Source: Pseudomonadota bacterium
GTDB lineage: Bacteria > Pseudomonadota > Gammaproteobacteria > Burkholderiales > Sulfuriferulaceae
DNA length: 34,829 nt
Reading direction: 5' to 3'
Assembly (NCBI GenBank): GCA_021790625.1
Contig: JAJYGL010000239.1
Coordinates: forward strand, 1 to 34,829
The translations under genes and the position numbers were made by a program. The notes beneath the pieces were generated by a model that worked only from the letters and a program-made list of their open reading frames with translations, was not told where the DNA came from and searched no databases. Shown here piece by piece: positions 12,311 to 34,319 of this stretch. Every line of letters begins with the position of its first letter. Position 1 is the first letter of the stretch.

Positions 12311-12323
12311 TCCCAGCCGCAAA

Positions 12324-14893: not shown

Positions 14894-14899
14894 GGCTGC

Positions 14900-14992
14900 C
14901 CCTAGAAATGCGAAAGGGCGCCGAAGCGCCCCTTCTAGTAGAGGTGCCTTTGGGGCACCGATGTAGCAGGTGTTTTTGGACACCGAGTAGAA
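14900..14992 (-). ncRNA. Candidate structured leader/antitoxin RNA upstream of NYN
   Basis: CUACUC-GGUGU(CCAAAA)ACACC-UG-CUACAUC-GGUGCC(CCAAA)GGCACC-U-CUACUA-GAAGGGGCGC(UUCG)GCGCCCUUUC. The structure is read from sequence; expression is not shown. Confidence 0.5.
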
Positions 14993-14997
14993 GCCTC

Positions 14998-15027
14998 ACT
15001 ATAAAGCATGATTCGAGAATTTGTCAA
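14998..15027 (-). promoter_or_regulatory. Sigma70-type promoter for the leader RNA and NYN gene
   Basis: Minus strand TTGACA (15027-15022), 18-bp spacer, TATAGT (15003-14998). Confidence 0.7.
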
Positions 15028-15157
15028 GTGGTGTATAAATCAGTGTGCTTGATTTACCAGTTTTCATCTACGGCTTGGCATCGTCCTCCCGGCTACGACC
15101 TGCGCCGTACGCGTCATGATCTTCCCGATTTGACCCGCAACGCGACTCTTGGAGGAG

Positions 15158-16582: not shown

Positions 16583-16646
16583 GGAGAGCTCCCCAAAGAA
16601 AACAACAGAACCCGACACAGACAACAAACGATGCCAACATCATCCA

Positions 16647-17981
16647 TCATCTGCCATCATTGTGCAACATATCTGCCTCTCGTACCCAGGACAGCGCCTC
16701 CACCTGCAGGCGATTGAGCAGGGCAGATGTCATATTGAACTTTGTAGCGAGCTCAGTCAACAAATCCGCCTCAGCGATTGGCGCGACATTCTCCAACTCT
16801 CTCGCGAAATGCAAAATATCGGTATACACATCCGGTTCGCCACGCAAAGCACGCTGCATGGGTGGGGCGAGCGTCACAAATTCCAGCACCTGCACCATCG
16901 GAACATTGAATAACGCATCCAGCAAAGAAAACATGCCAACAACAAACAAACTGTCGCCATTCATGGGTGGTTTGTGCTGCTGAGCCAACAATTCGCACAA
17001 CCGTCCACGCAACAATGCCTGGTACAACAGCAAGCGATCGTTAGGTGCCAGATTGCCGCTGGTGAACAGTAAAACAGTCAACCAGCGGTACAGTGGGTTA
17101 TAACCAAGAAAATACAATGCCTGCGTAATCGACTCCAACGGATGATCCAACCCGCTCAACGGCGAGTTGATGTAACTTAGCAAGCGATACGCCAACACGA
17201 CATCGCGCCGGATGACCGCATCCAGTTCAACCATTTCGGCATGCTGCGCCACCAGATTCAGCAACCGGATGATATGCAAACGGTCATGATCAATCCGTCG
17301 CGGCATCTCTGGCCGTACCTGGGCAAAAAAATAGCCTTGAAATGCCTGGAACCCCAACACGCGACAGGCTTCATATTCATCTTCCGATTCCACTTGCAAG
17401 GCAATGCGCATGGCTGACCATTTGGTTAGCGTGGCCATTTGACGCTCCAGCTCAACCATGTCGTACCGCCGCGTTTCAAACCGCAAAAATTTTACCAGCG
17501 GCAGCAGAACCTGCGCGGCGGGAACGTCCGGCAGGTTGTCCAAGGCAACGTTCACCCCTTGTTTTGCCACCATTTCAACTGCATCGACCAATGTCGTAAA
17601 ATCTACGATTTCCGCCATATCAATCGCGGGCACCACCTGCGCACCGGAGAAACAGTCGAGCCATTCGGTCAACAACGAAGCGTCCATACGTAAAAACAAT
17701 ACCTGCTGCACGGGCAAACTATCGGCCAAGCGTCGAATGATGGCGCAAAACTCCGGAGCCAGCACATTCAGCACCGCGTCCTGACCGGGGAGAGAAGGGT
17801 CTGCCCGAAAAGCCACATCATGGCCGACAAGATGGCCGGCAGCATCCACCACGGGTTGCCGCACCAAAAAAGAAGCCCCGGCACCAATAGTGCTATGTGG
17901 TCTTGAGTCAGCAACATCGGCCACCAGACTACTGGTCGTTGCCGAATGATGGTGAGAAAACTTCAACCAATGGTCAAACAT
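16647..17981 (-). CDS. EAL-HDOD protein with degenerate EAL motif (tandem paralog)
   Basis: RQPVVD...GHDVAFR, VALDNL, GFQAFQGYFF, YRLLSYINS, RGRLCELL, FVVGMFSLLDAL. Confidence 0.87.
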   Translation of the reverse strand: MFDHWLKFSHHHSATTSSLVADVADSRPHSTIGAGASFLVRQPVVDAAGHLVGHDVAFRADPSLPGQDAVLNVLAPEFCAIIRRLADSLPVQQVLFLRMDASLLTEWLDCFSGAQVVPAIDMAEIVDFTTLVDAVEMVAKQGVNVALDNLPDVPAAQVLLPLVKFLRFETRRYDMVELERQMATLTKWSAMRIALQVESEDEYEACRVLGFQAFQGYFFAQVRPEMPRRIDHDRLHIIRLLNLVAQHAEMVELDAVIRRDVVLAYRLLSYINSPLSGLDHPLESITQALYFLGYNPLYRWLTVLLFTSGNLAPNDRLLLYQALLRGRLCELLAQQHKPPMNGDSLFVVGMFSLLDALFNVPMVQVLEFVTLAPPMQRALRGEPDVYTDILHFARELENVAPIAEADLLTELATKFNMTSALLNRLQVEALSWVREADMLHNDGR

Positions 17982-18737: not shown

Positions 18738-19706
18738 TCAGAACAAATATGTTATACCCGCGCCAAACAATTCCGCTGCGACGAGCTGATACCCATTGGA
18801 TGCACGATACAAAGGAACATAAACGGACGCGTTCACCTGCCAATGGCGATCGAGATTGGCGAGCAGGCCAGGCGCAAGATACAGTGTCTTGTAACCGCTG
18901 TTCTGGTTGAAATAAACAGCATCCCCACCGCCTTCATCGTGCGCACGATACTGTGCGTTGAATTGCAACATCGGAATGATTTTTGTCGCATCGGCAATGC
19001 CGTTATAAGTAAACCCTGCCGTTGCATTCACACTGTCACCCGGCCGGTATCCCGCCATACTGTCCAGTGCATGGCGCCATGTACCTTGCGTGAACCAGGA
19101 AAAATTCGCATTGATATTGCCTTCATGATACCCGCCCAACAATAAATCGGTCGTGCCCGTACCCGGCGCAGTATCACGATCCATCACGGTTTCTTGATAA
19201 GGACCCGTCGGCAACTTCAAGCCGAATGTCAGCCCGGTTGATTTATCCTTGGAAAACCCCGTGTACATACCCTCAACCCGAATATCAGACAACGCATTCA
19301 CGGTTTGGCTCTGCAAATCTGGACTGACGCCTTGAGAAGCGTCAGTCACCCCCGGTATCCCATTCTCATCGGTGGTAAAAGATCGATGCCAGAAAGGAAT
19401 CATCGCCATGATCCCCCAGTCCTGATTAAACATGTGCTGACCATACAACGTATAAAAATCGGTTTGTATCTGTTTATCCGGGTTGAGGGCATTGGAGACA
19501 TTGTTGGTAAAATTATGATCCGTATTCTGATTCATGTAACTATACTGAAGAGATAACTGATCATTCATCCCCGTAACAGGCAAACCCGGCAAACCGACAT
19601 CAAAAATACCACAACCACAAGCACACGCCAGCGCCTGTCCTGGTAGCCAGACAGCACCAACCAACGTAACAGCAACACATTGCCTGAAAAAACGCATCGA
19701 CACCAT
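18738..19706 (-). CDS. Putative outer-membrane beta-barrel transporter with N-terminal CxCGC motif
   Basis: Signal peptide ending ALA then CACGCG; GLKLPTG and PGTGTTDLLLG motifs as in MetA-pathway-type channel proteins; alternating beta strands; terminal Phe (GITYLF). ATG 19706 behind GGGAG preferred. Confidence 0.7.
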   Translation of the reverse strand: MVSMRFFRQCVAVTLVGAVWLPGQALACACGCGIFDVGLPGLPVTGMNDQLSLQYSYMNQNTDHNFTNNVSNALNPDKQIQTDFYTLYGQHMFNQDWGIMAMIPFWHRSFTTDENGIPGVTDASQGVSPDLQSQTVNALSDIRVEGMYTGFSKDKSTGLTFGLKLPTGPYQETVMDRDTAPGTGTTDLLLGGYHEGNINANFSWFTQGTWRHALDSMAGYRPGDSVNATAGFTYNGIADATKIIPMLQFNAQYRAHDEGGGDAVYFNQNSGYKTLYLAPGLLANLDRHWQVNASVYVPLYRASNGYQLVAAELFGAGITYLF

Positions 19707-19950
19707 TTTTCTCTCCCTTGATAGACCTATATTCATTGTGTTCCACGACATCACCCCTTCGCCATTATCAGGAGAGAAAGCAGCGAGGTAAATGCGACAA
19801 ATTGTCGCACCCAACAAACCAGAAGCTTGGGGAACCATCACCTGATTCCCGCAAAACCGCCCTTGGCGGAACAAATCTCTGGCTTCTTTACACCAAGACC
19901 CGCCAAACGGCTTCGCAAATACGAATGAGTACGCTAAAATCGCCCCCATT

Positions 19951-20026
19951 GGGGATGTAGCTCAGTTGGGAGAGCGCGGCGTTCGCAATGCCGAGGTCGG
20001 GAGTTCGATCCTCCTCGTCTCCACCA
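19951..20026 (+). tRNA. tRNA-Ala(CGC)
   Basis: 76 nt; acceptor GGGGATG/CGTCTCC with G3:U70, D arm GCTC/GAGC, anticodon arm CGGCG-TTCGCAA-TGCCG, T loop GTTCGATC, encoded CCA. TAAAAT -10 at 19935-19940. Confidence 0.97.
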
Positions 20027-20032
20027 AAATTC

Positions 20033-20059
20033 AAAGCCGACTGTTCTCAGCCGGCTTTT
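20033..20059 (+). terminator. Terminator-like hairpin after the tRNA
   Basis: aaagccgactg-ttct-cagccggctttt, one mismatch and a short T run. Confidence 0.5.
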
Positions 20060-20321
20060 CCATTTCTGCCGTTCCCGCAAGCTACGCCGGGTTCCGCCCC
20101 GTTTTGCGTGTGCCACCCACCCCGCAACGCACCCCGAAATTGCGTCGTTTCCGGCACGGTTCGACTCTGTTCTGCTCTCTGTTCTCAAAAAATAATGGAG
20201 AACCGCATCGCTCTGGCACAGGCAGAACGCGTTTTTAGTCAATGTGTTATGCGCGTGCCGGAAAGCGCGGTTTGTCGGGTAGAGTGGTGCAGGGTTTGAA
20301 ATAACCGCCTTGATTCCCATG

Positions 20322-21824
20322 TCATTTTTTATCTTGCAATCCTTCCAACGCTGCATGTCCCAATATACCGCTGGCGGCGAGCAATTCCAGTCTGCTGGCT
20401 TCCCATTGCGCCAGACTTTGTACCCATTGCTGCCTGGCGTCGGTAAGCGATGACTGTGCAGTAAGCAGTTCAATCATGGTCCCAACACCGTGGTCATACC
20501 GATTTTGAGCAGACTCCATGGTCACTCGGGCGCTTTCCAGCAAAGATCTGGATGCATCGATGGCATCAAATGCCATCACAGCATCGCCATAGGCAGATAC
20601 AACCTGTTTCATTATTTGATGCTCCGTGTCCTGCATTTGCGCCTGCGCCACATCCGCCTGCGCTTTTGCCTCATCAATTTTATAATGTTGCATGAAGCCA
20701 TCAAAAATCGGCACATTCAAGGTCAAACCGACAGTGGTTATGTTGTTCTGGACGGGTTGCAGCCCTTGGTTGGGATAACCATTTTGATCGTACGTGGCGA
20801 CAAAGCTCAAGGTTGGCAATCCATCCGAACGCGAACTGCGTATTTTTGCCTGGGCGGCTACCCACCGTTTCCGAGCAGCACGAATTGCTGGCTGGTAATG
20901 TTCTGCGAAGTGTATCCAATCCGTCAATGCCGCTACTGTTCTGGATTTGTCTGGCGCTAACAAATCAGGCAGCACTATGGTCATATCTGGCGCCAAACCC
21001 AATGCATAAATCAGCTCGGCCAGCGTTTTGTCGCGCTCACCCGTATCGCGCGCAAGTGACAGATCCGCTTTCGCCGCTGCGGTTTGTGCCTGTGTCAGAT
21101 CACCGCGATCTCCCGTTCCGTGCTGCAGTTTCCTGTTTGCACTATCTTCGATCCGATGCGCCAATTCTTTTGCTTTTATGCTCGCATCAACTTTCGCTTG
21201 AGCCGCAATGGCGTTGAAATAATCCGAGATCACTTCTCCAAGCAATTTCTGCATTTCAGCATCATGATCATCGATTGCGGCTTTCAGCGCATTATCAGAG
21301 ACTTCCAGATTGGCAGACCTGCCACCAAAATCGAGCAACAACCAATTCAGAGAGGCATAAGTCATATGTCCTTGTGTCGTATTGTTTGCCGATGCGAAAC
21401 CAGGATATACCGTACGATTATTCAGTTCGCTGATCTGGGCTGAAACTGTTGGCAAATACGCGGATCGCGCTTGACCAACCTGTGCGACCTGAACCTTGAT
21501 TTGTGCCCATGTATCGCGAAGCTGCGGATTGCTGCAAAGCGCCAGATCAACAGCATCGACAAGCGACAATGCACGGCTCATGTCTATCTGCGGCGGGCAG
21601 AGTACTGGAGCAGCATCGCCTGGCAATGTAAAACCTTCCGGCAAGCTGGCGGGCTGAGCCGACAGCGGGTCATCCATCCAATGGCGTAAAATCCCCGATT
21701 GGTGCGTGGCTGGCTGCGGAGTCGTCTCCGCAGCTTGAGCCGGACGGAAACCATTCAAGAACAACATGAAACATACTGGCAGGCAAATCAGAGCACCAAA
21801 CATGATTTGCCGTTTACCGCTCAT
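20322..21824 (-). CDS. TolC-family outer membrane efflux protein
   Basis: LSLVDAVDLALCSNPQL, ARSAYLPTVS, LLLDFGGR, LNVPIFDGF, RYDHGVGTMIELLTAQ; overlaps the hlyD-like stop. Confidence 0.92.
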   Translation of the reverse strand: MSGKRQIMFGALICLPVCFMLFLNGFRPAQAAETTPQPATHQSGILRHWMDDPLSAQPASLPEGFTLPGDAAPVLCPPQIDMSRALSLVDAVDLALCSNPQLRDTWAQIKVQVAQVGQARSAYLPTVSAQISELNNRTVYPGFASANNTTQGHMTYASLNWLLLDFGGRSANLEVSDNALKAAIDDHDAEMQKLLGEVISDYFNAIAAQAKVDASIKAKELAHRIEDSANRKLQHGTGDRGDLTQAQTAAAKADLSLARDTGERDKTLAELIYALGLAPDMTIVLPDLLAPDKSRTVAALTDWIHFAEHYQPAIRAARKRWVAAQAKIRSSRSDGLPTLSFVATYDQNGYPNQGLQPVQNNITTVGLTLNVPIFDGFMQHYKIDEAKAQADVAQAQMQDTEHQIMKQVVSAYGDAVMAFDAIDASRSLLESARVTMESAQNRYDHGVGTMIELLTAQSSLTDARQQWVQSLAQWEASRLELLAASGILGHAALEGLQDKK

Positions 21825-23157
21825 GCAAGCTCTCGGTTGTATGCCGTATCAAAGGCGACAGGAAATATTCGATGACCCGCCGCCGGCCTGTCCGGATTTC
21901 CACCGTTCCTGACATGCCCGGATCAAGCGTACGTTTCGCGCCATCCACATCCAGAACAGGCCGCAGCAATGTGACCCGGACTGCATACTGCAATCCTTTT
22001 TTCTGATCTTCAACGGCATCACGTGCGACCAGGGTGACCCGTGCTGGAACGGTTCCATATTTCGTGTAATCAAAGGCATCGATTTTGACTTCGGCGCTTT
22101 GTCCGACATGAACAAACCCCACATCCTTGTCTGCAAGCATGGCTTCCATCGTCACAGACCTGTTTTGCGGCACAATCTGCATCAGCGCCTGTGCCACCGG
22201 AACTGCTGCACCAACCGTATGAACCTGCATTTGTTGCACGGTGCCAGCAACCGGCGAACGCAACACAAGCTGATTGATCTCGATTTGGACCCTTGCCGCA
22301 TCGGCTTGGGCATCTGCCGCTTGTTTGGTTGCCTGCGCCAGATCATCTTCAGCATTCTTGCCGGTTTCCGCAACCAGGGCAGCAAGCTGCATGCGAGCAG
22401 CGTCAAACTGGCCCTGCAAATCAACCTCGGTTTGCTTTTTGGTCAACGCATCCGTTCGTGCCACATCATTGGTTTCCGCCAACACGGCGTAATCCTCTGC
22501 AATACGTCTGGCAAGCGGCAATGCGGCGCCAAAACGCGCCATATCAGCACGCAACCGATCTCGCTTGGCCACAAAATCCGCCCACTGACCTTGCAAGTGC
22601 ATAGCCGCGTCACGCCACAAACCATGCTCAACCCCGGCTATCGGTGGCATTTGTGGTTGTCGTCCGCTTCGAAGCGAAGCCATCATCGCGCGCGATTGTG
22701 CGGCCTGGAGAACAGCCATTTGCCAGTCGGCCAGATCCTTTATCCGCTCATCCTCAAACGCGCGTGAATCCAGCAGGATCAAAGCTTGTCCTGCCTGAAC
22801 CCGCTGCCCGTCCTCGACAAGGATTGCTCTGACCGTGGCGACCTGAACAGCAGTAATAACCTTGGTCTGTCCATCGGGGATAATCTTGCCTTGGGCATCC
22901 ACCGTAATGTCGATATGTCCGAAAATCGACCAGATCAGCAAAATTGCCAACAGGGAAACCAACAATCTCGCCACCCAACGTGCCGTGGGTGACACCGGTT
23001 TGTGTTGCAGCGCCAGTGCGGCCGGCAAAAATTCGGCTTCATGGGAACGAAGTTCGGGCAAAGCCATTTCGTGTCTTTTGCGCCACCAGAACCGGAATAC
23101 GCTGGCATATCGCCCAAACAGTTCGCCCCATGCCTCCAAACGATGCTTGAAATTCAT
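21814..23157 (-). CDS. HlyD-family T1SS membrane fusion protein
   Basis: EAEFLPAALAL, TM helix, AQGKIIPDG, LRSPVAGTVQ, DVGFVHVGQ, KIDAFDYTKYG, PGMSGTVEIRTGRRRVIEYFLSP. Confidence 0.95.
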   Translation of the reverse strand: MNFKHRLEAWGELFGRYASVFRFWWRKRHEMALPELRSHEAEFLPAALALQHKPVSPTARWVARLLVSLLAILLIWSIFGHIDITVDAQGKIIPDGQTKVITAVQVATVRAILVEDGQRVQAGQALILLDSRAFEDERIKDLADWQMAVLQAAQSRAMMASLRSGRQPQMPPIAGVEHGLWRDAAMHLQGQWADFVAKRDRLRADMARFGAALPLARRIAEDYAVLAETNDVARTDALTKKQTEVDLQGQFDAARMQLAALVAETGKNAEDDLAQATKQAADAQADAARVQIEINQLVLRSPVAGTVQQMQVHTVGAAVPVAQALMQIVPQNRSVTMEAMLADKDVGFVHVGQSAEVKIDAFDYTKYGTVPARVTLVARDAVEDQKKGLQYAVRVTLLRPVLDVDGAKRTLDPGMSGTVEIRTGRRRVIEYFLSPLIRHTTESLHER

Positions 23158-25322
23158 GCGGCTGCTCTTATTCCCTGTTGCAATGCGTACAAGTGCGCAT
23201 AAACCCCTTGTGGATGATTCACAAGTTCAGTATGGGTGCCGGTTTCAATGATTTGACCGCGATCCATGACCACAATCCGATTCGCATCACGTACCGCCGT
23301 CAAACGATGGGCAATGATCAAAACCGTACGCCCGGCGGAAATACGACGCATATTGGCTTGAATAACACTTTCCGATTCATAATCCAGCGCACTCGTTGCC
23401 TCATCAAAAATCAGAATACGCGGGTTGCTGATAAGCGCCCGTGCGATTGCAATCCGTTGCCGCTGCCCTCCGGATAATCCTGTGCCATGTTCTCCGACCA
23501 TGGTGTCATATCCTTCGGGTAATTCACAGATGAAGTCATGCGCGCCCGCAAGCGTAGCCGCCGCAATGATCGCTTCGATTGACAAAGCCGGATTTCCCAG
23601 CGCAATATTATCCCGTACGGATCGGTTGAACAGCACGTTCTCTTGCAGCACCACACCAATCTGCTGCCGCAAGGATGCCGTATCGATCACCGATATGTCC
23701 TGACCATCAATCAGAATCCTGCCGCGATCCGGGACGTACAGACGTTGAACCAGACGTGTCAACGTGCTTTTACCCGATCCTGATCGCCCGACAATCCCGA
23801 TGACTTCTCCCGGACTGATTTCAAGCGATACTCCGCGCAAAACATCCACAGAATCGGGGTGATAGCGAAATGAAACCTGATCAAACTCTATGGAACCATT
23901 CAAACGCGGCAAACGGGTTTTATTGCCGGCTATTTCCGGATGTGTATTCAGAATATCGCCCAGACGGCTCATGGATATTCCGACCTGCTGGAAGTCGTTC
24001 CACATCTGCGCCAGCCGCAATACAGGACTGGACACCTGTCCGGCCAGCATATTGAACGCCACCAGTTCTCCCACCGTCAGTTGATGGTCGATAACACTCT
24101 TGGCACCAAACCATAGAATGGCGGCTGTCACCAGTTTGCTGACCAATTGCACCCCGTTGCTGGCAAATGTGGCCACGTTCGTCACCGACAATCCGGCCGA
24201 CACATAACCGGCAAGTTGCTGATCCCAGCGTTTGACCCATCCGGGTTCAACAGCCATCGCCTTGATTGTATCGATGCCACTGATGGTTTCGACCAGAAAC
24301 GACTGACTTTCAGCGCCACGATTGAATTTTTCGTCCAGTCGCACCCTGATGGCCGGAGTAAAGACTACCGAAAGCAGGATGTACAACGGAAACGATGCAA
24401 CCACAATCAGCGTCAGCTTGGCGCTATACCAGAACATGACCGCCAGAAAAACAACGGAAAACGCCAAGTCCAGCACCAGCGTCATCGCGTTGCCGGTCAG
24501 GAACGACCGGATATTTTCCAGCTCCCGAATGCGCGCCACCGAATCCCCTACACGCCGCGCCTGAAAATACGCCAATGGCAATCCAAGCAAATGCCTGAAC
24601 AGGCGCGCACCCAACTCGACATCGAGCTTGCTGCTGGTGTGGGCAAATACCCAGGTGCGAATGCCCGTCAATACGACCTCGAACACATTGGCCACAACCA
24701 ACCCGATGACAATGACATCCAGCGTGTCCATTGCCCGGTTTACCAGCACCTTGTCCATGACCACCTGAAAGAACAATGGCAAGACAAGGCCGATGATTTG
24801 CAGCACCAATGAGAGCAGCAGAATTTCACCCAACAAACTGCGATACTTGACGATTGCCGGGATAAACCAGGTAAAGTCAAATTTGGCCAGACTTCCGGCA
24901 AAACTGGCCTTGCTGGAAAACAGCAATAACTCGCCTGTCCACCGGTTCAGCAGTTCCGAAAGCGAAAACAACAGAGGCTGTTCGCCCGCATACTGGACCA
25001 GCACACGGTCAGGAGCGGCATTGGGCTCCGCAGAACCGACCCGTGCGATAATAAAGAACCGCCCATCACGGTCCTGCGCAATTGCCGGCAGCGGCGCATG
25101 TGTCAAGCGTTCCGGTCGTTGCTGCACGCTCCTCGCGCTCATGCCGAGATAATCGGCCGCAAGCAAAATCGTCTGTGCAGTTAAGGGTTGATGTCCAAAC
25201 TGATGGCGCAACGCAACCTCATCCGCCGCAATCTGGTGAAATTGCGCCATGGCAAGCAACGCCCATAACCCACTGTCAGGCACAGCTTCCGACTGCGCCT
25301 GACCTGTAGTCAACTCACTCAT
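23154..25322 (-). CDS. HlyB-family T1SS ABC transporter with C39-like domain
   Basis: DSGLWAL (no catalytic Cys), FDFTWFIPAIVKY, PLFFQVVMDKVLV, GRSGSGKST, LSGGQRQR, ILIFDEATSALD. ATG 25322. Confidence 0.95.
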   Translation of the reverse strand: MSELTTGQAQSEAVPDSGLWALLAMAQFHQIAADEVALRHQFGHQPLTAQTILLAADYLGMSARSVQQRPERLTHAPLPAIAQDRDGRFFIIARVGSAEPNAAPDRVLVQYAGEQPLLFSLSELLNRWTGELLLFSSKASFAGSLAKFDFTWFIPAIVKYRSLLGEILLLSLVLQIIGLVLPLFFQVVMDKVLVNRAMDTLDVIVIGLVVANVFEVVLTGIRTWVFAHTSSKLDVELGARLFRHLLGLPLAYFQARRVGDSVARIRELENIRSFLTGNAMTLVLDLAFSVVFLAVMFWYSAKLTLIVVASFPLYILLSVVFTPAIRVRLDEKFNRGAESQSFLVETISGIDTIKAMAVEPGWVKRWDQQLAGYVSAGLSVTNVATFASNGVQLVSKLVTAAILWFGAKSVIDHQLTVGELVAFNMLAGQVSSPVLRLAQMWNDFQQVGISMSRLGDILNTHPEIAGNKTRLPRLNGSIEFDQVSFRYHPDSVDVLRGVSLEISPGEVIGIVGRSGSGKSTLTRLVQRLYVPDRGRILIDGQDISVIDTASLRQQIGVVLQENVLFNRSVRDNIALGNPALSIEAIIAAATLAGAHDFICELPEGYDTMVGEHGTGLSGGQRQRIAIARALISNPRILIFDEATSALDYESESVIQANMRRISAGRTVLIIAHRLTAVRDANRIVVMDRGQIIETGTHTELVNHPQGVYAHLYALQQGIRAAA

Positions 25323-25332
25323 ATTTCTAAAT

Positions 25333-28300
25333 TCAATGCCAGTTGGCGGCCAGCACCGGAGCAAGTTGTTGTTGCTGGGTCGTGCTCAGATTCATTTGAC
25401 CCGACGGGGGCGGAGTCATGGATGCCATCGCCTGCACCAGAGAATTGATCCCGCTAGCCGAGATCGTGTCCCCCGATCCATCCCTGACAGTTCCAATCTG
25501 ATAATACGTGCTGTCAAACCAGTTGGTTACCGTCTCGGTTTCCGACGTGCCGTCAACGGTGATAAGCAGATTGTTGCCCGAACGACTGAACCAGAGCTGA
25601 TCTGCTGTCACATCTGAACCAAATGCCAGCGTGTCTGATGCGCCATTGGAAACGCTAAACGAATTAGCTCCGCTGCCATTGGCCAGCGTCAATGTTGCGG
25701 CAGAACCCATATTCACCGAATTATTCGATCCGTTCATCGTGGCATTGCCATTGACAACGAGTCCTGTCACGCCGGTTGCGTTGATCGTGTCCGAATTGCC
25801 GTTTATCGTCAGCCCCGTCGTTCCGGTCACATTGATCGTGTTGCTGTTGCCGCCAACGGTCAACCCGCTGACATTGTTATCATTGACCGTGTCACCAGTC
25901 AGATTGAGCGTACTGTAATTGCTGCTGACATTGACCGCCACACCCGAACTGGTCAGGTTCAGTGTATCGTACGATCCCGTCACCGACACGCTGCCGAAGG
26001 CATCGCCCCCCGTCTGGTTCAGCGCGTTGCCATATCCGGCCAGCGTCAGCGCATCACCGGTGGCATTTGCCGTGACATCAAATATGCCGTAATACCCCGC
26101 AATGGTGGTGCTCGTGTTGGCTGCCTGCTCGATCACATCCGCCGTCCCGTGGTACACGGTTTCCGTGATCGTATCATTACTGCCACTGGCCAGCGTCAGT
26201 GTGCTGGCTCCCATGTTCACCGTGTCATTCGAGCCGGTTAGCGTGGCGCTGCCGGTCAGGTTCATCGTGCCCACGCCGCTGGCCGTGATCGTGCTCGACC
26301 CGCCGTTCACCGTCAGGTTCGTGAGGCCACTTGTCGCATCGATGACGCTCGAATTGCCGTTCACCGTCAGGTTCGCCACGCCGCTGGTGTCAACCGTGTT
26401 GCCGTTGCCGTTCACCGTCAAATAGTTCGTGCTGCTGGCCGTGACCGTGCTGCTGGTCAGGTCGAGCGTATCGTAGTAGCCGTTGCCGCTCACAGTCACC
26501 GCTGCACCTGTGCTGGTCAGGTCCAGCGTGTCTTCACTTCCCGTGACCGACACGCTACTGAATGCATCGCCCCCCGTCTGGTTCAGCGCGTTGCCATATC
26601 CGGCCAGCGTCAGCGCATCACCGGTGGCATTTGCCGTGACATCAAATATGCCGTAATACCCCGCAATGGTGGTGCTCGTGTTGGCTGCCTGCTCGATCAC
26701 ATCCGCCGTCCCGTGGTACACGGTTTCCGTGATCGTATCATTACTGCCATTGGCCAGCGTCAGTGTGCTGGCTCCCATGTTCACCGTGTCATTCGAGCCG
26801 GTTAGCGTGGCATCGCCAGACAGGTTCAAGGTGGTAATACCGCTTGTGTCTATCGTATTGCCGTTGCCGTTCACAGTTAACGAATTGGCATTGCTGGCAG
26901 TAATCGTGCTGCCGCCCAGATTAAGCGTATCGCTATTCCCGCTGACAGTAACCGCCACGCCGGTGCTCGTCAGGTTCAGGGTGTCACTGGAGCCTGTGAC
27001 CGACACGCTGCCGAAGGCATCGCCTCCCGTCTGCGTCAGCGTATTACCGCCACCCGCCAGCGTCAGCACATCGCCGGTCGCCTGCGCCGTCACGTCGAAC
27101 GTGCCAGTATTTCCGCTCAGAGTATTGCTCGAATTTGCCGCCTGTACAAAGAAATTGATGAAATTTCCCGATTGCGTCACCGTGTTGCCGCTGCCACTGG
27201 CCAATGTCAGCGTCACAGGCGTACCCACGCTTACCGTGTCATTCGATCCGCTCAGTATAGTACTGCTATCCAACACCAGCGACGCATCATTTGATGAAAC
27301 AACGACAGAAGCCTGCCGGGTCGTCCCCAAGGTGGCGATAGTATTTTGAAACAAGGTTGACGGAGATGGGTAATACGCATTGAGTGCGCTCACAATACCA
27401 TTGTATGCACTCGATCCGGACAAGAATGTGCCAAATTCAAGTTGTTGCATCGTACTCATACTGCTCAAAGCATTGACAAGTCCGGAAACGTCATAAGTAA
27501 ACGATTGCGTCGTCGGGTTATAGCTCAGCTTTACATCTGTCAACAAATTCTGATTTGTTCCGTAATTCAGCAAACAACCGCTGACATAATTGACCAGTTG
27601 ATTCCATGCCGCCTCCACCATAGGAACGCCCGCCATCGTCACTAAGGTCGTAGACCAGCCACTATTGTTTGAATACTGGGCGCCGACGAATTTGGACAGC
27701 GCATCAATTTCGCGTGTGTCTCCCGTGAAATGATAAGCCTCCTCAGGAGAATTATTCTGCACCCCCGTCCAGGTAAAAATCAGGTTGCTGATCAATGACG
27801 GCTGTTCCGCTGGTGTGGCGGCAAGGTACTGCTTGACCAGATTGGCAAGGTTACCGGTGGTATCCAGCGCCATCGCCACTTGCAGATTATGCACATCGCC
27901 CCAGCCGGCCACATCGGGCAGGTTTGCATAGGCGCTATTGACGGTACCGGCGCTTTCGTCGATGGTATTGGAGGTGTTGATGGACATGTTCATGTCCGAG
28001 AGCGTGCCGGTCGTGCCGTTGCCATAGGTGACGGTGCTGGTCGCGAGCGTCTTGTCGCCGTTGGCATCCGTTGTGTTGACCGCCGTCGAATTCAGGCTGA
28101 TGGAGGTAATGCCCGCCTGCGCCAGCGTTTCAAGGTGTCCAGAGCCGGGCTGGCCGTTGGAACCCACCCAGATCTCGATCTGGTTGAAATCCGTATCGGA
28201 CGCGTTGATCACGCCATCGTGATTGGTATCCAGTGTCGCCAGTTGGGTAAACCCGGCCTGCCCAAGTTTGTTGCCGTTCTGGTTGGTGGTGCTGCTGCCG

Positions 28301-28983
28301 ATGATGGTGAACCCGTTGTTCAGCGTGCCTTTCGCATTGGTGACATCCACCAGTACTGCAGCATTGGAACTGAACCACGAGCTTTGTTCCGCAAAGCCCG
28401 TGTTCTGGTAATCCACAAACGCACCATTTGCCAACGAAGTCGTCGTCACCGCCTGACCGTTGGTGGAGATGACCAGCGGGTCGATGACCTGGTTCTGGGC
28501 GTTGCCAAGTAAACCAGAAACAATGTTGGCAAGTGTACTGCTGTCGGCAGCCCCCTGAATTCCGTTATTGATTGCATTGTCCAACAGATCTGTTAATGAA
28601 CTTAGAGTTGAAATCAAATCACTACCGTAATTTGCAGATGCGCTAATCAGAGCGCCCGCAAGAACAAGCTCCGGATTATCAGTCACGTTACCAACCGAAC
28701 TTATCAGTCCTCCCAAGCTACCAATTACATCGGAAATTGAACCAGTGCCAGCCTCGTATTGACTGATGTTATACATCAATGTTACTGCATTCGTTTGGAG
28801 TAAATTCCCGTTTAAAAAACCTTTTAGGTAATCATTTTGACTCAAATCGAAAACAAGCCCAGCCACATCTTGAGAAAAGACAAGAAAATTACTTGTTGTT
28901 TGATTTTGATACCAGGCATTAAAATCATGATAAGTATTACTCAAATCCAACAAATTTCCAGGTGTAAGAATTTTTCCAGCCAT
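25333..28983 (-). CDS. 1216-aa T1SS-secreted RTX-related protein with FrpC-like self-processing module
   Basis: GGAGG RBS. D168-P169 'IDPLVI' is followed by SPM-like GFTQLATLDTNHDGVINASDTDFNQIEIW...LETLAQAGITSISL; G/N/T/S beta-repeats; C-terminal QLWFSRSGNNLLI...LVQAMA...LAANWH typical of RTX-family C-termini. Confidence 0.88.
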   Translation of the reverse strand: MAGKILTPGNLLDLSNTYHDFNAWYQNQTTSNFLVFSQDVAGLVFDLSQNDYLKGFLNGNLLQTNAVTLMYNISQYEAGTGSISDVIGSLGGLISSVGNVTDNPELVLAGALISASANYGSDLISTLSSLTDLLDNAINNGIQGAADSSTLANIVSGLLGNAQNQVIDPLVISTNGQAVTTTSLANGAFVDYQNTGFAEQSSWFSSNAAVLVDVTNAKGTLNNGFTIIGSSTTNQNGNKLGQAGFTQLATLDTNHDGVINASDTDFNQIEIWVGSNGQPGSGHLETLAQAGITSISLNSTAVNTTDANGDKTLATSTVTYGNGTTGTLSDMNMSINTSNTIDESAGTVNSAYANLPDVAGWGDVHNLQVAMALDTTGNLANLVKQYLAATPAEQPSLISNLIFTWTGVQNNSPEEAYHFTGDTREIDALSKFVGAQYSNNSGWSTTLVTMAGVPMVEAAWNQLVNYVSGCLLNYGTNQNLLTDVKLSYNPTTQSFTYDVSGLVNALSSMSTMQQLEFGTFLSGSSAYNGIVSALNAYYPSPSTLFQNTIATLGTTRQASVVVSSNDASLVLDSSTILSGSNDTVSVGTPVTLTLASGSGNTVTQSGNFINFFVQAANSSNTLSGNTGTFDVTAQATGDVLTLAGGGNTLTQTGGDAFGSVSVTGSSDTLNLTSTGVAVTVSGNSDTLNLGGSTITASNANSLTVNGNGNTIDTSGITTLNLSGDATLTGSNDTVNMGASTLTLANGSNDTITETVYHGTADVIEQAANTSTTIAGYYGIFDVTANATGDALTLAGYGNALNQTGGDAFSSVSVTGSEDTLDLTSTGAAVTVSGNGYYDTLDLTSSTVTASSTNYLTVNGNGNTVDTSGVANLTVNGNSSVIDATSGLTNLTVNGGSSTITASGVGTMNLTGSATLTGSNDTVNMGASTLTLASGSNDTITETVYHGTADVIEQAANTSTTIAGYYGIFDVTANATGDALTLAGYGNALNQTGGDAFGSVSVTGSYDTLNLTSSGVAVNVSSNYSTLNLTGDTVNDNNVSGLTVGGNSNTINVTGTTGLTINGNSDTINATGVTGLVVNGNATMNGSNNSVNMGSAATLTLANGSGANSFSVSNGASDTLAFGSDVTADQLWFSRSGNNLLITVDGTSETETVTNWFDSTYYQIGTVRDGSGDTISASGINSLVQAMASMTPPPSGQMNLSTTQQQQLAPVLAANWH
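26000..26811. repeat. Intragenic direct repeat, 248 bp, copies at 26000-26247 and 26564-26811
   Basis: The copies are 564 bp (188 codons) apart; I saw one mismatch (ccactgg vs ccattgg, Ser/Asn). A more diverged copy lies at about 26995-27250. Confidence 0.9.
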
Positions 28984-28997
28984 GTGAAATCCTCCAT

Positions 28998-29453
28998 TTA
29001 CTTTAGAATTCGATCAAAAAAAACAGAAAACATCATTGTCATCATTGTGGCCACAACATTAATCTGTGCCAGAACATGAATATAACCACAAATTTTTCTA
29101 AATATGCTGATATTGCTTGTCATGGTAGAATAAAACATAGGTATCAAAGGCGCCAGCGCCCATCCAGCTCTGTAACTAACATGATCTTTCATGCTCCTTT
29201 GATACACATCAGGTGAATAGAAAAGTTGCGCAAGATAGTTTCCTAATATCCATATAATAATTGCAGATAAAATAAAAATGTTTCGATGCGAAAACAAAAA
29301 ATTGCTTTCACTGAAATAGTGCACGGCAAATCCAGTGAAAATCCCTAAAAATAGACCAACAAGCGGAAAGTAACGAAGCACAATCCAGGCCAACTTATGA
29401 AGTTTATTCATATTAAAATTTAAAGTGATTGTTGAACCGCTATTCAGCATCAA
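28998..29453 (-). CDS. Hypothetical small multi-pass membrane protein (candidate immunity protein)
   Basis: AT-rich ORF with 3-4 hydrophobic segments, ending 14 bp before the secreted-protein start; start codon uncertain. Confidence 0.7.
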   Translation of the reverse strand: MMLNSGSTITLNFNMNKLHKLAWIVLRYFPLVGLFLGIFTGFAVHYFSESNFLFSHRNIFILSAIIIWILGNYLAQLFYSPDVYQRSMKDHVSYRAGWALAPLIPMFYSTMTSNISIFRKICGYIHVLAQINVVATMMTMMFSVFFDRILK

Positions 29454-29492
29454 TGCAAGCTTATTCGATACGAATTTCTGTTAAAAATCGTT

Positions 29493-30065
29493 TTACTCCA
29501 CTCCGTTGCGCGCATCGTTATCGCCACCATCTTCCACCCTGATATGTATCCCGCCATACGCCGCTGCGATCAACCACCAGAAAGCCAGTACCTGCATAAT
29601 AATTTCAACGATGAAAAGCTTTGCAGGCAGAATGATTCCATAATCATGCAATATATACGACAGAGCTTTGACGAAAACGCGCCATCCCTGAACCAGCAAT
29701 ATTGTTCTCCAGAAAACCCCCCAGACCAAGGCCAATGCATGCTTGGCTGATAGCGGCAGATTGAGAAGTCGCCCGTTTTCTGTGACTGCTATTCGCCATT
29801 TTTTACCACGAACATTGACAGGTTTCCTGAAAAGTTTGCTGGAAAAAACATACCACTGAATTCCAAAAATCGAAATTATTGTAAAGATTATGATACCAAA
29901 ATGGGGATCATGATGGGTTTGCGACACCCCCATCAGCTTTATGAACAGACCGTAAAAAATGATACTGATCAAGGCGAAGCCGATTATATAAAGCAGTGAC
30001 CAGCGAAATAATCGCGACCACAAAATAAAGGAAATGAAGAACATTGATTTATTTGAAATTTTCAT
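29493..30065 (-). CDS. Hypothetical multi-pass membrane protein (candidate immunity/accessory protein)
   Basis: AT-rich 190-aa ORF with about 4 hydrophobic segments; GGGGG before the ATG; co-oriented with the T1SS operon. Confidence 0.7.
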   Translation of the reverse strand: MKISNKSMFFISFILWSRLFRWSLLYIIGFALISIIFYGLFIKLMGVSQTHHDPHFGIIIFTIISIFGIQWYVFSSKLFRKPVNVRGKKWRIAVTENGRLLNLPLSAKHALALVWGVFWRTILLVQGWRVFVKALSYILHDYGIILPAKLFIVEIIMQVLAFWWLIAAAYGGIHIRVEDGGDNDARNGVE

Positions 30066-30327: not shown

Positions 30328-30804
30328 CTAAAACCCGAACATCCTCCGTTGCTCCTGCCAGTCCACCGGCACATCTGTCTCGCGACCACGCAACGTATGC
30401 AGATTGAGATGACGAGGCTGACGTCCTTCAAGGATGGCCTGCACGATGTCGGGCGCCAGCCGTGTCAGCCGTAACACCTCCGCGACCCAGCCTGGTTCCA
30501 GCCGGAGTTGCCGGGCCAATTCTGCGATGTTGGCGACTTTGCCGGTATCCAGCAATTTCTGCCAATAGCAGGCTTTGCCCAATGTGCGGATCATGGGCAG
30601 ATCAAATGATGATTTGACCTGTGCGCTGCTGTTTCCCGGCGGCGGAACCAATACCTTGCTGTAACTGCGACGCTTGATGCTCAATGGCACGAAGGTCACG
30701 GAGCGGCCACCAGCTTCAAACTGGCGTGCATCGCCCGCCATCATGATTTCCACCTTTCGCCGCGCCACCACTGCATGGAAGTTCCCGGTATCTGTTTCCA
30801 TCAC
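30328..30804 (-). CDS. Conserved hypothetical protein that accompanies island serine recombinases (HTH-like)
   Basis: TFVPLSIKRR, YWQKLLDTG...ELARQLRL...VLRLTRLAPDIVQAILEGRQP, PVDWQEQR; overlaps the recombinase stop. Confidence 0.8.
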   Translation of the reverse strand: MMETDTGNFHAVVARRKVEIMMAGDARQFEAGGRSVTFVPLSIKRRSYSKVLVPPPGNSSAQVKSSFDLPMIRTLGKACYWQKLLDTGKVANIAELARQLRLEPGWVAEVLRLTRLAPDIVQAILEGRQPRHLNLHTLRGRETDVPVDWQEQRRMFGF

Positions 30805-32222
30805 ACCATCTCCATTTCATCAACCGAATCCACCGCTGCGTCACGCTGTTCCTCGACGAAGGGATGACGTTCGAGTTCCCGTCGGAATGCTTGCCAGCCG
30901 TCATCACGCCAAACGATATCCAGCCCATCGGCGCGCAATTGCACCCGTTCGATCAGGAGCCGCACGATCCGGTGTTGCTCAACCGGAAACAGGTGATCCC
31001 ACACGGTGCCGATCTGGCGCATGGCAACCATGATGGTGGGTTCGTCAAGGGAGTTGCGTTCCTGCAAAGTCTGAGCGGATTGCCATACCGCAACCATTAT
31101 CTCGGGGGCTTGCAAAACTTGATGTACTTGGGACAAGACGGCAGTCTCGATTTCTACCGCTGGCAGTGCTCCCATACCACACCGGCCTGGCTGACTTGAT
31201 GCGCCGGCATTCTGTCGCTTTTCCAGATATGGAACATAGTACCGGTACCGCCGCCCATCTTTTTTGGTGGTGTGCGACGGAATCATGCGCTGCCCGTCCG
31301 GCGCGTACAGCAAACCCGACAGTAGTGCGGGGTTTGATGTGTGCTGCACCCGTGGGCCTCGTTTGCGCCCGTCGATCACCGCATGAACCGCATCCCACAC
31401 TTCCCGGTCGATGATCGCTTGATGCTGACCGGGATAAGATTGACCGTGATTGCTGATTTCACCGAGGTAGAGCCGGTTGCGCATCATCGAGAACAGATAC
31501 TGCTGGTCGATGGTTCTGCCGGGACGATGGCGCCCCGTTTGGGTGATCCAGGATTTTGTTGTGCGGCCCTCAATTTTCAGCTCGCGTACCAATTGCGCTG
31601 CCGAGCCGTGCTCGGCATAGCGGATGAAGATGTCGCGCACCAGATCTGCCTCCGACTCGTTGATGACCAGCTTGCGATCCTTGACGTCGTATCCCAGTGG
31701 CGGCATACCACCCATCCACATGCCCTTGGCCTTGCTCGCCGCCAGTTTGTCGCGGATGCGCTCACCGGTCACTTCGCGTTCGAACTGGGCAAAGGAGAGC
31801 AGGATGTTGAGCGTGAGGCGCCCCATGCTGGTTGTGGTATTGAACTGCTGGGTGACGGATACGAAGGTCACGCCGTGAGCATCGAACAGGTCGACAATCT
31901 TGGCGAAGTCACCGAGCGAGCGCGACAGCCGGTCGATCTTGTAGACCACCACGACATCGACGCGGCCATCCTCGATGTCAGCGAGTAGCCGCTTCAAGGC
32001 CGGGCGGTTCATGTTGCCGCCTGAAAACCCACCATCGTCATAACCATCGTCGATGGCAATCCAGCCCTCATGCCGCTGGCTGGCAATGAAGGCAAGCGCG
32101 GCATCCCGTTGCGCTTCCAGGCTGTTGTATTCCTGATCCAGCCCCTCGTCCGTGGATTTGCGGGTATAGACGGCGCAACGACGCTTCGGTGTCGTGGCAG
32201 GAGATGATGTCGATGGTTTCAT
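30801..32222 (-). CDS. Large serine recombinase (resolvase + recombinase domains)
   Basis: CAVYTRKS (catalytic Ser), YDDGGFSGGNMNRPALKRLL, VYKIDRLSRS, FAQFEREVTGERIRDK, GGMPPLGYD, HQAIID. Confidence 0.95.
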   Translation of the reverse strand: MKPSTSSPATTPKRRCAVYTRKSTDEGLDQEYNSLEAQRDAALAFIASQRHEGWIAIDDGYDDGGFSGGNMNRPALKRLLADIEDGRVDVVVVYKIDRLSRSLGDFAKIVDLFDAHGVTFVSVTQQFNTTTSMGRLTLNILLSFAQFEREVTGERIRDKLAASKAKGMWMGGMPPLGYDVKDRKLVINESEADLVRDIFIRYAEHGSAAQLVRELKIEGRTTKSWITQTGRHRPGRTIDQQYLFSMMRNRLYLGEISNHGQSYPGQHQAIIDREVWDAVHAVIDGRKRGPRVQHTSNPALLSGLLYAPDGQRMIPSHTTKKDGRRYRYYVPYLEKRQNAGASSQPGRCGMGALPAVEIETAVLSQVHQVLQAPEIMVAVWQSAQTLQERNSLDEPTIMVAMRQIGTVWDHLFPVEQHRIVRLLIERVQLRADGLDIVWRDDGWQAFRRELERHPFVEEQRDAAVDSVDEMEMV

Positions 32223-32683
32223 GCTTGTCCTTTCCGGCGTTCACGATGACAGGGTTTCAATCCGAAAAACACCGGTCCCGAGTAGTTGGTGCCGGTAATG
32301 GCGCGTGCCACAGCCGTGAGGCTTTTGTAGGGATGCCCCTGGTATTCAAAGCGTCCATCATCGAGTACGGTCACGTGATGGTCGATACCGTCGAATTCAC
32401 GTACCAGCATGGTTCCGGGCGCAATCCGGCTTTCCGATCGGCGCTTCTGGTTGGGCACCTCTCCGGTCTCGCCGATTTTTTCCAGGCGGCGGCGAATGGT
32501 TGCAGACAAACCGCCGAAAGCCCGCTCCTGCAGTTTGTACGCGATACGGCTTTCCAGATAGGTGCGATGGTGATGCCCCGGGCGACGATCGAAAAACTCG
32601 TCCCAAAGTCCCCACAGATTTTCCATGGAAAGATCGGGCAACTGCGCGATTTGCGCCGTTACGTTGGTTGCATGTGTCGTCAT
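32219..32683 (-). CDS. DUF2924-family protein
   Basis: LESRIAYKLQERAFGGL, PGTMLVREFDG, YKSLTAVARAITGT.YSGPVFFGL; ATG 32683 with GGAG RBS; coupled to the recombinase. Confidence 0.88.
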   Translation of the reverse strand: MTTHATNVTAQIAQLPDLSMENLWGLWDEFFDRRPGHHHRTYLESRIAYKLQERAFGGLSATIRRRLEKIGETGEVPNQKRRSESRIAPGTMLVREFDGIDHHVTVLDDGRFEYQGHPYKSLTAVARAITGTNYSGPVFFGLKPCHRERRKGQA

Positions 32684-32904
32684 TGGCGAACTCCTTCTTG
32701 ATAAGACGGGTTCACATGAACGCTCTGGTTGCCAGTAATAGCAAGACGAACCGCACTCGATTCGCGTGATTCGCAACCAGGGGGAACGGCGTGCATTCGC
32801 AATAGTGCTGCGGCCAGAAGATCGGCGATTTCGCGTTGCGGGCGCCGGGGACGGGGTTCTGTCACCGACTGGCGAAGAGTAGAGGGGAATTCCGGTTTTG
32901 ACAT
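32680..32904 (-). CDS. Small hypothetical protein of the island backbone
   Basis: 74 aa, EIADLLAAALLR...NQSVHVNP; stop overlaps the DUF2924 start (ATGA). Confidence 0.6.
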   Translation of the reverse strand: MSKPEFPSTLRQSVTEPRPRRPQREIADLLAAALLRMHAVPPGCESRESSAVRLAITGNQSVHVNPSYQEGVRQ

Positions 32905-33045
32905 GGTTGGCGATCCTGATGGAAAACGCTGTCCATGGTATCGCCCAACCCGATGCGGAGTAACTCGTTTGGTGGGGAATGTGCGGTAATGACGGGCCGA
33001 TCGGGATTCAACCCGTCAAGTGAATATCGAGGAGACTGAAACCCT

Positions 33046-33969
33046 CTACCTCACGGGAGGTTGCCCGCTATCGATGAAACGATCGAATGTGTCGTGCGTC
33101 TCCTCATCCTCCCATCCGCTGCGCACATATTGTCGTGGCGGCGCCGACTCCAGCATCAGCAAGGACAGCACCCGATTGCCACCGGGATAGCTGTGTTTCA
33201 GTTCCCGAATCTTGATGTCATTGGCCTCACTGGTGCACCAGATGTTCGCCGTCATGTCGACACCATCCCACTCCTGCTCGACGGAGTCATCGGCGGCCAG
33301 TGTGCCGTACAGCGGCTCTTGCGGATCAGAGGTCTTGCGCAAACGCACGCGGGTCTTGCGGGCTTCGCCGCTGGGCCACTGATATTTTAAGAAGCCATGA
33401 TCCCAGTACACCAGCATGGCACGCTGCTCGGTGTACTTGACGATGCGGATCGACATCGATTCCAGGGATACCCCGAACTCTTTGGCCAGATCGCCGATCA
33501 GATGGAAATCGATACGCTTGCCCGCAATCCGGTCACGCAGCATGTCGCCGGGCATCAACAGGTTGCTCGCGAAATCATCGGCTTCGCGTTCGATCTGCTT
33601 CAGGTTGTCGATGCCGGAATAGACGCTTTCCTTATCACACAGGAAACTGGGCTGGCTAGTGCGGTGCAGAATGAAATGTCCAAGCTCGTGGGCGATGGTG
33701 AAGCGTCTCCGTTCTGGCCGAGCCTTGGGGTTCACGAAAATCCCCCACTCGATTTCATTCTCCGGGTTGCGCACCAGTGCGCCTTCACTGGCATTCCAGG
33801 TCAGGTCGGCGGGTTCCTTGATCACGCTTCCACGACCGAACGGAGTGTCGGGCAATACCTGACGCACGAGATTCAAATCGATCGGCAGAGTCCGTAAACC
33901 CATTGCATCGAGCCAATTCAGGATGCGGACAGCTGCCTTGAATGCGTTCAGGTCGTCCGTGGCGGTCAA
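33046..33969 (-). CDS. ImmA/IrrE-family zinc metallopeptidase
   Basis: RRRFTIAHELGHFILH (HExxH), EREADDFASNLLMP, LAKEFGVS; TTG start overlaps the XRE stop. Confidence 0.92.
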   Translation of the reverse strand: MTATDDLNAFKAAVRILNWLDAMGLRTLPIDLNLVRQVLPDTPFGRGSVIKEPADLTWNASEGALVRNPENEIEWGIFVNPKARPERRRFTIAHELGHFILHRTSQPSFLCDKESVYSGIDNLKQIEREADDFASNLLMPGDMLRDRIAGKRIDFHLIGDLAKEFGVSLESMSIRIVKYTEQRAMLVYWDHGFLKYQWPSGEARKTRVRLRKTSDPQEPLYGTLAADDSVEQEWDGVDMTANIWCTSEANDIKIRELKHSYPGGNRVLSLLMLESAPPRQYVRSGWEDEETHDTFDRFIDSGQPPVR

Positions 33970-34319
33970 GATTTATTCTCCGACCCCGCTTTTGTCGGAG
34001 TACCGAACATGAGTTTCAACGCATCGCGGTATTTGCTTTTTTCAGCCTCACTCATACCAGCATATTCGCGGAAAAATGCGACGTCGGTCGGGCTTGGGCT
34101 TTGCATTGACTCAACGGGCTCACCGAGCAAATCCTGGATGGTGACTCCGAGCGTCTTGGCGATGGCATTCAGTCTTTCTGCGGTGGGTTTCTGGCCCTCG
34201 CGCATCTCCAATTCCCAGATATAGGCTTTGGTGCAGCCGACGTTGTCTGCCACCTGCTGCAGGGTCAGCCCCTTGGCTTCCCGAAATTCCCGCAGCCGCT
34301 TTCCAAATGGGTTTTGCAT
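33966..34319 (-). CDS. XRE-family HTH transcriptional regulator
   Basis: FGKRLREFREAKGLTLQQVADNVGCTKAYIWELE...PTAERLNAIAKTLGVTIQDLL. Confidence 0.93.
   Translation of the reverse strand: MQNPFGKRLREFREAKGLTLQQVADNVGCTKAYIWELEMREGQKPTAERLNAIAKTLGVTIQDLLGEPVESMQSPSPTDVAFFREYAGMSEAEKSKYRDALKLMFGTPTKAGSENKS

Follow-up and report, generated by a model that had tools for sequence, protein, structure and literature searches.

An exchangeable N-terminal cargo on an FrpC-type scaffold suggests a polymorphic toxin system of reversed polarity

What are clip-and-link proteins such as FrpC, built around a self-processing module (SPM), for? This old question is raised by a locus on contig JAJYGL010000239.1 of a Sulfuriferulaceae bacterium (Burkholderiales; assembly GCA_021790625.1), whose 34,829 nucleotides were analyzed and are here called the window. 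The genes of the locus lie on the minus strand, in the order U2, U1, a 1216-aa gene, HlyB, HlyD and a TolC-family gene. A sequence-only reading had proposed that upstream immunity genes and an N-terminal toxin form an exchangeable cassette, joined to a constant scaffold of SPM, stalk and type I secretion system (T1SS) signal. Comparative analyses suggest that the locus is probably a reversed form of polymorphic antibacterial toxin system: the N-terminal domain (the cargo) and the one adjoining upstream gene are exchanged as a unit on the SPM-stalk scaffold. Such a reversed T1SS version would be a testable answer to the question of what these proteins do. The parts of the locus are as follows (ORF, open reading frame).

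29493..30065, minus strand: U2, head gene of the locus, a 190-aa multi-pass membrane protein with four hydrophobic segments
28998..29453, minus strand: U1, a three-helix membrane protein of about 140-151 aa with three hydrophobic segments, likely an immunity protein
28990..28995, minus strand: Shine-Dalgarno-like sequence GGAGGA preceding the start codon of the putative toxin
25333-28983, minus strand: 1216-aa toxin-scaffold ORF, with D168-P169 as its single Asp-Pro
28510..28983, minus strand: exchangeable N-terminal cargo (residues 1-158), predicted to be membrane-acting, with an all-helical model
28504..28512, minus strand: exchange junction L159-G160; from here on, scaffolds that bear other cargos are homologous
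28477..28482, minus strand: Asp168-Pro169, predicted cleavage site, aligned with FrpC D414-P415
27949..28479, minus strand: FrpC-type SPM, de-acidified (match to 6sjw)
27304..27948, minus strand: conserved post-SPM scaffold domain with no assigned function (residues 150-560 are 73-91% identical in four homologues)
25684..27303, minus strand: Thr/Gly/Ser/Asn-rich repeat stalk of variable length between relatives, with no canonical RTX nonapeptides
25333..25683, minus strand: C-terminal region, predicted T1SS secretion signal (weak HCBP_related match)

Cargo exchange and the upstream genes

When residues 150-560 were used as the query, nine proteins were found among 7993 candidates, and the four closest (those 73-91% identical) carry unrelated N-termini. 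Nine close scaffolds share 75-97% identity over the first 140 residues of the SPM, but N-terminal similarity was found in only 2 of 36 pairs, giving seven types. The N-terminus is therefore not conserved in step with the scaffold. Compared separately, as the sequence-only reading had suggested, homologues share the SPM-stalk-T1SS scaffold and differ in their N-termini and upstream gene. A single clade for the three SPMs that bear the window's cargo was rejected (approximately unbiased test, p 1.5e-5; ten rows, in a mostly unresolved tree). All cargo-scaffold fusions are in frame and use one common junction. By sequence, this is the constant scaffold with unrelated, exchangeable putative effector domains that is expected of a polymorphic toxin.

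Two loci of a congener, G017, illustrate the exchange. G017:C10 is syntenic with the window, with flanks of 79-82% DNA identity on both sides and an SPM 94% identical to that of the window, but it has another cargo and another upstream gene (147 aa, with a hydrophobic segment at its N-terminus). G017:C3 starts with a U2-like gene, a U1 homologue (U1', 84% identity) and the window's cargo (78%) on an SPM that ends at 383 aa; next come a 158-aa gene with a transglycosylase cargo that IS630 interrupts, then a 186-aa gene with a lysozyme-type cargo on a full scaffold, and finally HlyB and HlyD. Each cargo there is preceded by its own small gene, and the SPM arm of the spare cassette shares 97% identity with the neighbouring scaffold and 85% with the window SPM. 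Cargo exchange, the pairing of U1 with its cargo, a truncated spare cassette with an SPM arm, and sibling cargos of lysozyme and transglycosylase type can all be read from these sequences. The window itself holds no spare or orphan cassette. The ratio of nonsynonymous to synonymous substitution rates (dN/dS) indicates purifying selection on both the window cargo (0.21) and U1 (0.14).

The sequence-only reading had also placed an abrupt change in composition near 28500, from an AT-rich start to a GC-rich remainder, and this was borne out. GC and third-position GC (GC3) are 0.39/0.32 in codons 1-160 versus 0.58/0.78 in codons 161-345, and the best GC3 change point within codons 1-345 is codon 159 (window 28506), which was equalled by 0/1000 shuffles. 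The Asp codon of D168-P169 does lie at 28482-28480, and this is the sole Asp-Pro in the ORF. The swap had been placed at the Asp-Pro itself. The junction is indeed near 28500, but blastn homology to four non-cognate scaffolds stops at 28504-28512 and DNA alignment places the border at L159-G160, nine codons before the bond. Similarly, the claim that both upstream membrane genes are AT-rich holds for U1 (GC 0.34), whereas U2 is only mildly so (GC 0.43, GC3 0.49; genome 0.52). Within metagenome run X1, one contig crosses the junction with the window allele and others depart at 28479-28510 into three distinct loose-end sequences, one of which matches P0003; these sequences may stem from several related organisms. 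Contig depth drops at the junction; depth does not measure copy number, and no count was taken from it. One allele (P0003, and the run loose ends at 28479) has a short acidic insert with a second Asp-Pro immediately before the SPM. The runs that contain window DNA are mine-drainage metagenomes of one study, from which the DNA may originate, with a small share in a second study, and no RNA run is listed among them.

The two upstream genes behave differently. An 84% identical U1 homologue immediately precedes the same cargo in G017:C3, and U1 was seen only before the window's cargo and is absent before others. No convincing U1 homologue was found in 400 class genomes (three weak matches), and the Atlas gave no usable match. 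U1 is likely, judging from this linkage, to be the cognate immunity protein. U2, however, is retained at the syntenic G017:C10 (53% identity, apparently without the last helix) despite the other cargo there, so that only one of the two upstream genes travels as the sequence-only reading had proposed. Diverged copies of U2 are present in G017 at C3 and, beside an insertion sequence (IS), at C15; dN/dS against the syntenic copy is 0.31; strong matches occur in 2/301 order genomes; and no protein family was found for it. A role for U2 as cognate immunity of the swapped cargo was ruled out because it stays in place beside another cargo. U2 is either a left-over (orphan) immunity gene or a constant accessory gene, outside the swapped unit. 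Co-variation of the adjacent gene with its putative effector is thus seen for U1 and not for U2, and in the wider comparison given below it is partial.

The window cargo has three alleles, 73-78% identical (two found by word search). Its structure model is all-helix and of low confidence (pLDDT 55), and two fold searches with it returned generic bundles only (best Z 7.8) and no family. A HMMER search of 1.84 billion representatives gave one match, through the linker only, and no cargo family was found in Atlas, Pfam, PHROGs or NCBIfam. The hydrophobic helices noted earlier in the first 168 residues are present but only moderate (best 19-residue Kyte-Doolittle mean 1.27). A cargo-U1 co-fold scored 0.00 with a poorly folded partner and carries no weight either way. 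The cargo is predicted to be a membrane-acting toxin.

The self-processing module, wider distribution and spare cassettes

Residues 169-335 match the FrpC SPM (6sjw, E 4e-18) and Pfam PF26745, named SPM, which agrees with the earlier assignment of an FrpC-type module starting at the Asp-Pro. Ligands were judged by alignment to the FrpC structure paper (PMC7078468; here and below, each paper is cited for selected passages). W451, W519, D462, the D499-D511 loop and D579 are kept in the window SPM, and D419/D421/D423, D456, E474, D478, D521 and E532 are replaced. The Asp plus Glu fraction is 0.079, versus a mean of 0.171 (range 0.094-0.221) in 74 other SPMs. Asp-Pro is an acid-labile bond, yet slow to break without catalysis (PMC7078468). 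Because carboxylates bind calcium poorly in acid, the de-acidified SPM may be an adaptation to acid. Asp-Pro is present in all ten close scaffolds, and its cleavage in the window protein is likely. In one cargo-SPM branch (L060, L061, L064, L077, L017) Arg-Pro or Arg-Ala replaces Asp-Pro and a second SPM is often present; other genes have Ser-Pro. Such genes cannot use FrpC chemistry, and thus the SPM fold may serve some further purpose besides cleavage.

SPM profile matches were found in 81/301 order genomes and 82/401 phylum genomes, many of them in other architectures. For the order-level set most matches were fetched, most of the standalone 340-410-aa class being left out, and a rule of thumb on domain position separated 46 cargo-SPM genes from 9 C-terminal-SPM genes, which served as a control. 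An adjacent upstream ORF precedes 40 of the 46 cargo-SPM genes, with GC lower than the SPM in 37 and a hydrophobic segment in 33; the corresponding control counts are 4 of 9, 1 and 2. Many families show this small-gene layout. In G710, G444, G478 and others, units made up of a small gene, a cargo and a truncated SPM are repeated in tandem, and orphan cassettes with a homology arm are found in G017:C3 and in order-level arrays (e.g. G710, G444, G478 and G697).

Among 36 N-termini scanned there were four lipases, three DUF6973, one M23, one NlpC/P60, three ALTTAQ repeats and two weak or repeat matches. The cargos of G017:C10 and P0002 may be papain-like, and that of L002 may be pesticin-like; both labels come from motifs, and searches did not confirm them. 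When 31 cargo-upstream pairs were compared (465 pairings, which include kin and are not independent), both genes were related in five, the cargo alone in 15 (none above 41% identity) and the upstream gene alone in one. Related upstream genes therefore came with related cargos in 5/6 pairs. By inspection, multi-pass partners accompany helical cargos, and partners with a single N-terminal hydrophobic segment accompany enzyme cargos, as would be expected if immunity proteins sit at the site of cargo action.

Other arrangements were also observed. Giant ALTTAQ-repeat proteins with the SPM at the C-terminus (L069-L072, L076, L078) and standalone 340-410-aa SPM proteins (L008, L010) show no small upstream gene pattern. 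Related WD40-like (PD40) proteins precede related cargos in two genomes (L060, 13103-14554; L073, 3088-4572). Going by a motif, these cargos may be phospholipase-A2-like, and each PD40 protein with its following cargo is a candidate new effector-immunity pair.

The upstream spare cassettes retain start codons and ribosome-binding-like sites, and thus some would be translated. Their C-termini often resemble this genome's transfer-messenger RNA (tmRNA) tag, ANDETYALAA; one such end is AANDGVWRVAA. A tag pattern, defined after the first tag-like ends were observed, matched 14/7616 six-frame ORFs of SPM loci: 11 distinct truncated scaffold ORFs from eight genomes, two duplicates and one chance match. 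The same pattern matched 0/4680 own-genome ORFs. Tag-like truncated SPM cassettes are those of L017, L060, L061, L065, L067, L073, L077/L138 and L120; P0010 and P0019 (truncated allele of the window's cargo) carry such ends too, and the G017 spare cassette ends in Ala-Ala without the remainder of the motif. In a second order-level batch, one of 17 short-tail ORFs had a tag-like end, and there was one near miss. A tag that ends in Ala-Ala is a potent signal for ClpXP (PMC10862746), and it is plausible, if slightly doubtful, that the tag-like ends direct degradation of spare cassettes. Three SPM proteins of G942 (L171, L186) share an Ala-Asp-Asn ... Ala-Ile-Val end, outside the tag pattern.

Secretion genes and surroundings

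The T1SS genes follow the 1216-aa gene directly.

23154..25364, minus strand: HlyB-type T1SS ABC transporter (TIGR01846 above cut-off)
21814..23157, minus strand: HlyD-type T1SS adaptor (TIGR01843 above cut-off)
20322..21824, minus strand: TolC-family outer membrane channel (PF02321; TIGR01844 below its cut-off)

By sequence criteria the 1216-aa protein is a predicted T1SS substrate: HlyB, HlyD and TolC adjoin it, its C-terminal region is RTX-like and it has no signal peptide. A profile of the corresponding region in P0002, a close homologue, aligns with the C-terminal part of RTX domains of solved structure (E 1.5e-7). The RTX nonapeptide motif has 0 matches in the stalk and PF00353 likewise has none, which places the protein outside the RTX family in the strict sense. 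The U1 3' end and the toxin start are 14 nt apart, and a promoter scan remained at chance level.

Just upstream of U2 (30328-34319, minus strand) are genes for a serine recombinase, DUF2924, an IrrE-like M78 peptidase and helix-turn-helix proteins, in the same arrangement as at G017:C10. An integrative element therefore probably carries the toxin locus. Right after TolC (18738-20473, minus strand), two ORFs of 403 and 179 aa without Pfam or NCBIfam match may belong to the secretion operon. Further along the minus strand are two tandem EAL/HDOD-like genes with an NYN-domain gene (14054-17981), and genes for the RuBisCO large chain, CbbQ and a VWA (CbbO-like) protein (9040-13703), which mark the host as an autotroph. 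Elsewhere in the assembly, G000:C177 (L018, 1-3895) holds the end of a second toxin gene, with a 74% identical C-terminus and its own HlyB and HlyD; the assembly lacks its SPM and cargo.

Explanations and comparison with known systems

The proposed reversed toxin system would work as follows. With the secretion signal at the C-terminus, the back of the gene would have to stay constant, so conflict-driven variation would move to the front, with spare cassettes upstream. Recombination between SPM-coding arms would reload the scaffold with another cargo together with the gene upstream of it. After export via the adjacent T1SS, a cut at the Asp-Pro would free the 168-residue cargo. The freed cargo would attack the envelope of rivals, the window's helical cargo damaging the inner membrane, and U1 would block it in the producer. 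Some of the upstream spare cassettes would also be expressed as protein, and in certain lineages a tag-like C-terminus would target these for ClpXP.

An alternative is an adhesin with a variable tip, as in the model published for FrpC and ApxIVA (PMC7078468, PMC5472700). The SPM anhydride would attach the cleaved N-terminus covalently to a surface, the upstream protein would retain it there, as proposed for FrpC-FrpD, and the tip would vary to change targets; the repeat stalk is adhesin-like and the window cargo has no enzyme signature. We consider this unlikely, as the same scaffold also bears enzyme cargos of lysozyme/transglycosylase type, U1 crosses the membrane several times and is no surface lipoprotein, and the upstream genes of spare cassettes are intact and under purifying selection. 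The enzyme cargos could also be modular secreted hydrolases or anti-predator effectors, used in scavenging or against protists, with upstream genes acting as chaperones or inhibitors against self-damage in export. The classic T1SS substrates include lipases and proteases (PMC3034196), and released enzymes need no entry into a living rival, for which no mechanism was found here. T1SS substrates bypass the periplasm, however, so that periplasmic or membrane partners better fit protection from incoming cargo, and seven unrelated cargos in one small clade, together with spare cassettes, fit an arms race; we regard hydrolases of this kind as improbable. Finally, the serine recombinase module beside the locus and the IS elements that interrupt G017 cassettes might indicate mosaic debris at a recombination-prone island, with AT-rich foreign DNA fused to an RTX-like gene and no selected function. 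The single in-frame junction throughout, the dN/dS values of cargo and U1, and the recurrence of the layout in many families largely refute this, and it is very hard to credit.

Several points weigh against the proposed toxin system as well. Toxicity, protection, export, cleavage and entry are steps that we infer, and nothing found here accounts for passage of a T1SS-released cargo across the outer membrane of its target. The SPM lacks D478 and three of the four calcium sites of FrpC, the D499-D511 loop alone being intact, and for this reason cleavage is unproven; Asp-Pro is retained in just 27/46 order-level cargo-SPM genes, and cleavage is thus not required for the architecture. The window cargo has no homologue of known function by sequence or fold searches and is only moderately hydrophobic, and 22/36 scanned N-termini have no family. 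U2 breaks the one-toxin-one-immunity rule. Upstream similarity is undetectable in 15/20 cargo-related pairs, and 3/5 doubly matching pairs are drawn from three related lipase loci. Lastly, tag-like ends were found in 0/24 of a held-out phylum batch, which was picked by ORF length alone and consists mostly of intact C-terminal-SPM proteins with at least two apparent spare cassettes; together with the after-the-fact pattern, this makes tag ends lineage-limited at best. A broader generalization is accordingly offered as tentative and rather doubtful: that SPM T1SS proteins are widespread back-to-front antibacterial toxins, reloaded from upstream, whose spares are destroyed through tag mimics that recombination removes, and that in mine drainage the SPM and stalk were rebuilt without calcium carboxylates, perhaps with acid-driven Asp-Pro cleavage.

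In comparison with known systems, the locus would work as polymorphic toxin systems do, and its sequence places it in the SPM family, but it departs from strict RTX proteins, from the FrpC calcium sites and from the usual polarity. The usual account of polymorphic toxin systems puts the toxin at the C-terminus and the immunity gene downstream of it (PMC3482391), an order that is reversed here. Passages of that survey contain no match for T1SS or FrpC, and T1SS is not among the routes they list. No description of reversed cassette arrays, of this cargo repertoire or of tag-like ends was found in searches of an open-access library; domain architectures are tabulated in the supplements of PMC3482391 and PMC6759196, where such proteins may already appear. 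As in contact-dependent growth inhibition (CDI), Rhs and MafB systems, a constant delivery scaffold is combined with a variable toxin and cognate immunity, and spares carry an arm by the processing motif (PMC3150448, PMC5472700). Unlike in those systems, the toxin is N-terminal, immunity and spares are upstream and secretion is of type I; additionally, the spares retain start codons, which most CDI orphans lack (PMC3150448). A predicted helical toxin with a small hydrophobic membrane protein as its putative immunity partner resembles CDI ionophore toxins with membrane CdiI (PMC11630599), although U1 is larger, with three segments rather than a two-helix hairpin, and no sequence or fold link was found.

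RTX bacteriocins (RzcA and relatives; PMC3034196) and Caulobacter CdzC/CdzD (PMC5380434) are likewise T1SS-exported antibacterials; cargo swapping, an SPM and cassette arrays are not described for them in the passages cited. Mycobacteriophage repressors with ssrA-like tags (integration-dependent immunity) also encode a C-terminal tag that recombination removes, converting a degraded protein to a stable one (PMC8092301). Here, unlike there, the tag-like ends sit on truncated toxin cassettes, and degradation is only proposed.

The closest likeness is to FrpD-FrpC/FrpA of Neisseria meningitidis and to ApxIVA, in which the SPM follows an Asp-Pro, export is by T1SS and a partner gene lies directly upstream. 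FrpA and FrpC also bear unrelated N-termini on one scaffold (PMC3034196), a difference attributed to foreign DNA or immune pressure (PMC3034196; PMC5472700). Unlike in FrpC and ApxIVA, RTX nonapeptides are absent here, three of four calcium sites are eroded, the partner is a multi-pass membrane protein and not a lipoprotein, and relatives have enzyme cargos and upstream spare cassettes, the latter not mentioned for FrpC or ApxIVA in the passages cited. Bayer-Santos et al. (PMC6759196) reported a type IV secretion system effector, homologous to RTX N-termini, that slows bacterial growth and has an FrpD-like immunity protein, and proposed FrpC as a T1SS antibacterial effector with FrpD as its immunity protein; in the passages cited, the effector-immunity idea was previously proposed for FrpC alone. 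The de-acidified SPM could broaden SPM-based protein ligation tools, and the region before an SPM plus its upstream gene provides a mining rule for antibacterial domains and immunity proteins. If true, a widespread back-to-front class would recast FrpC-like proteins as interbacterial weapons.

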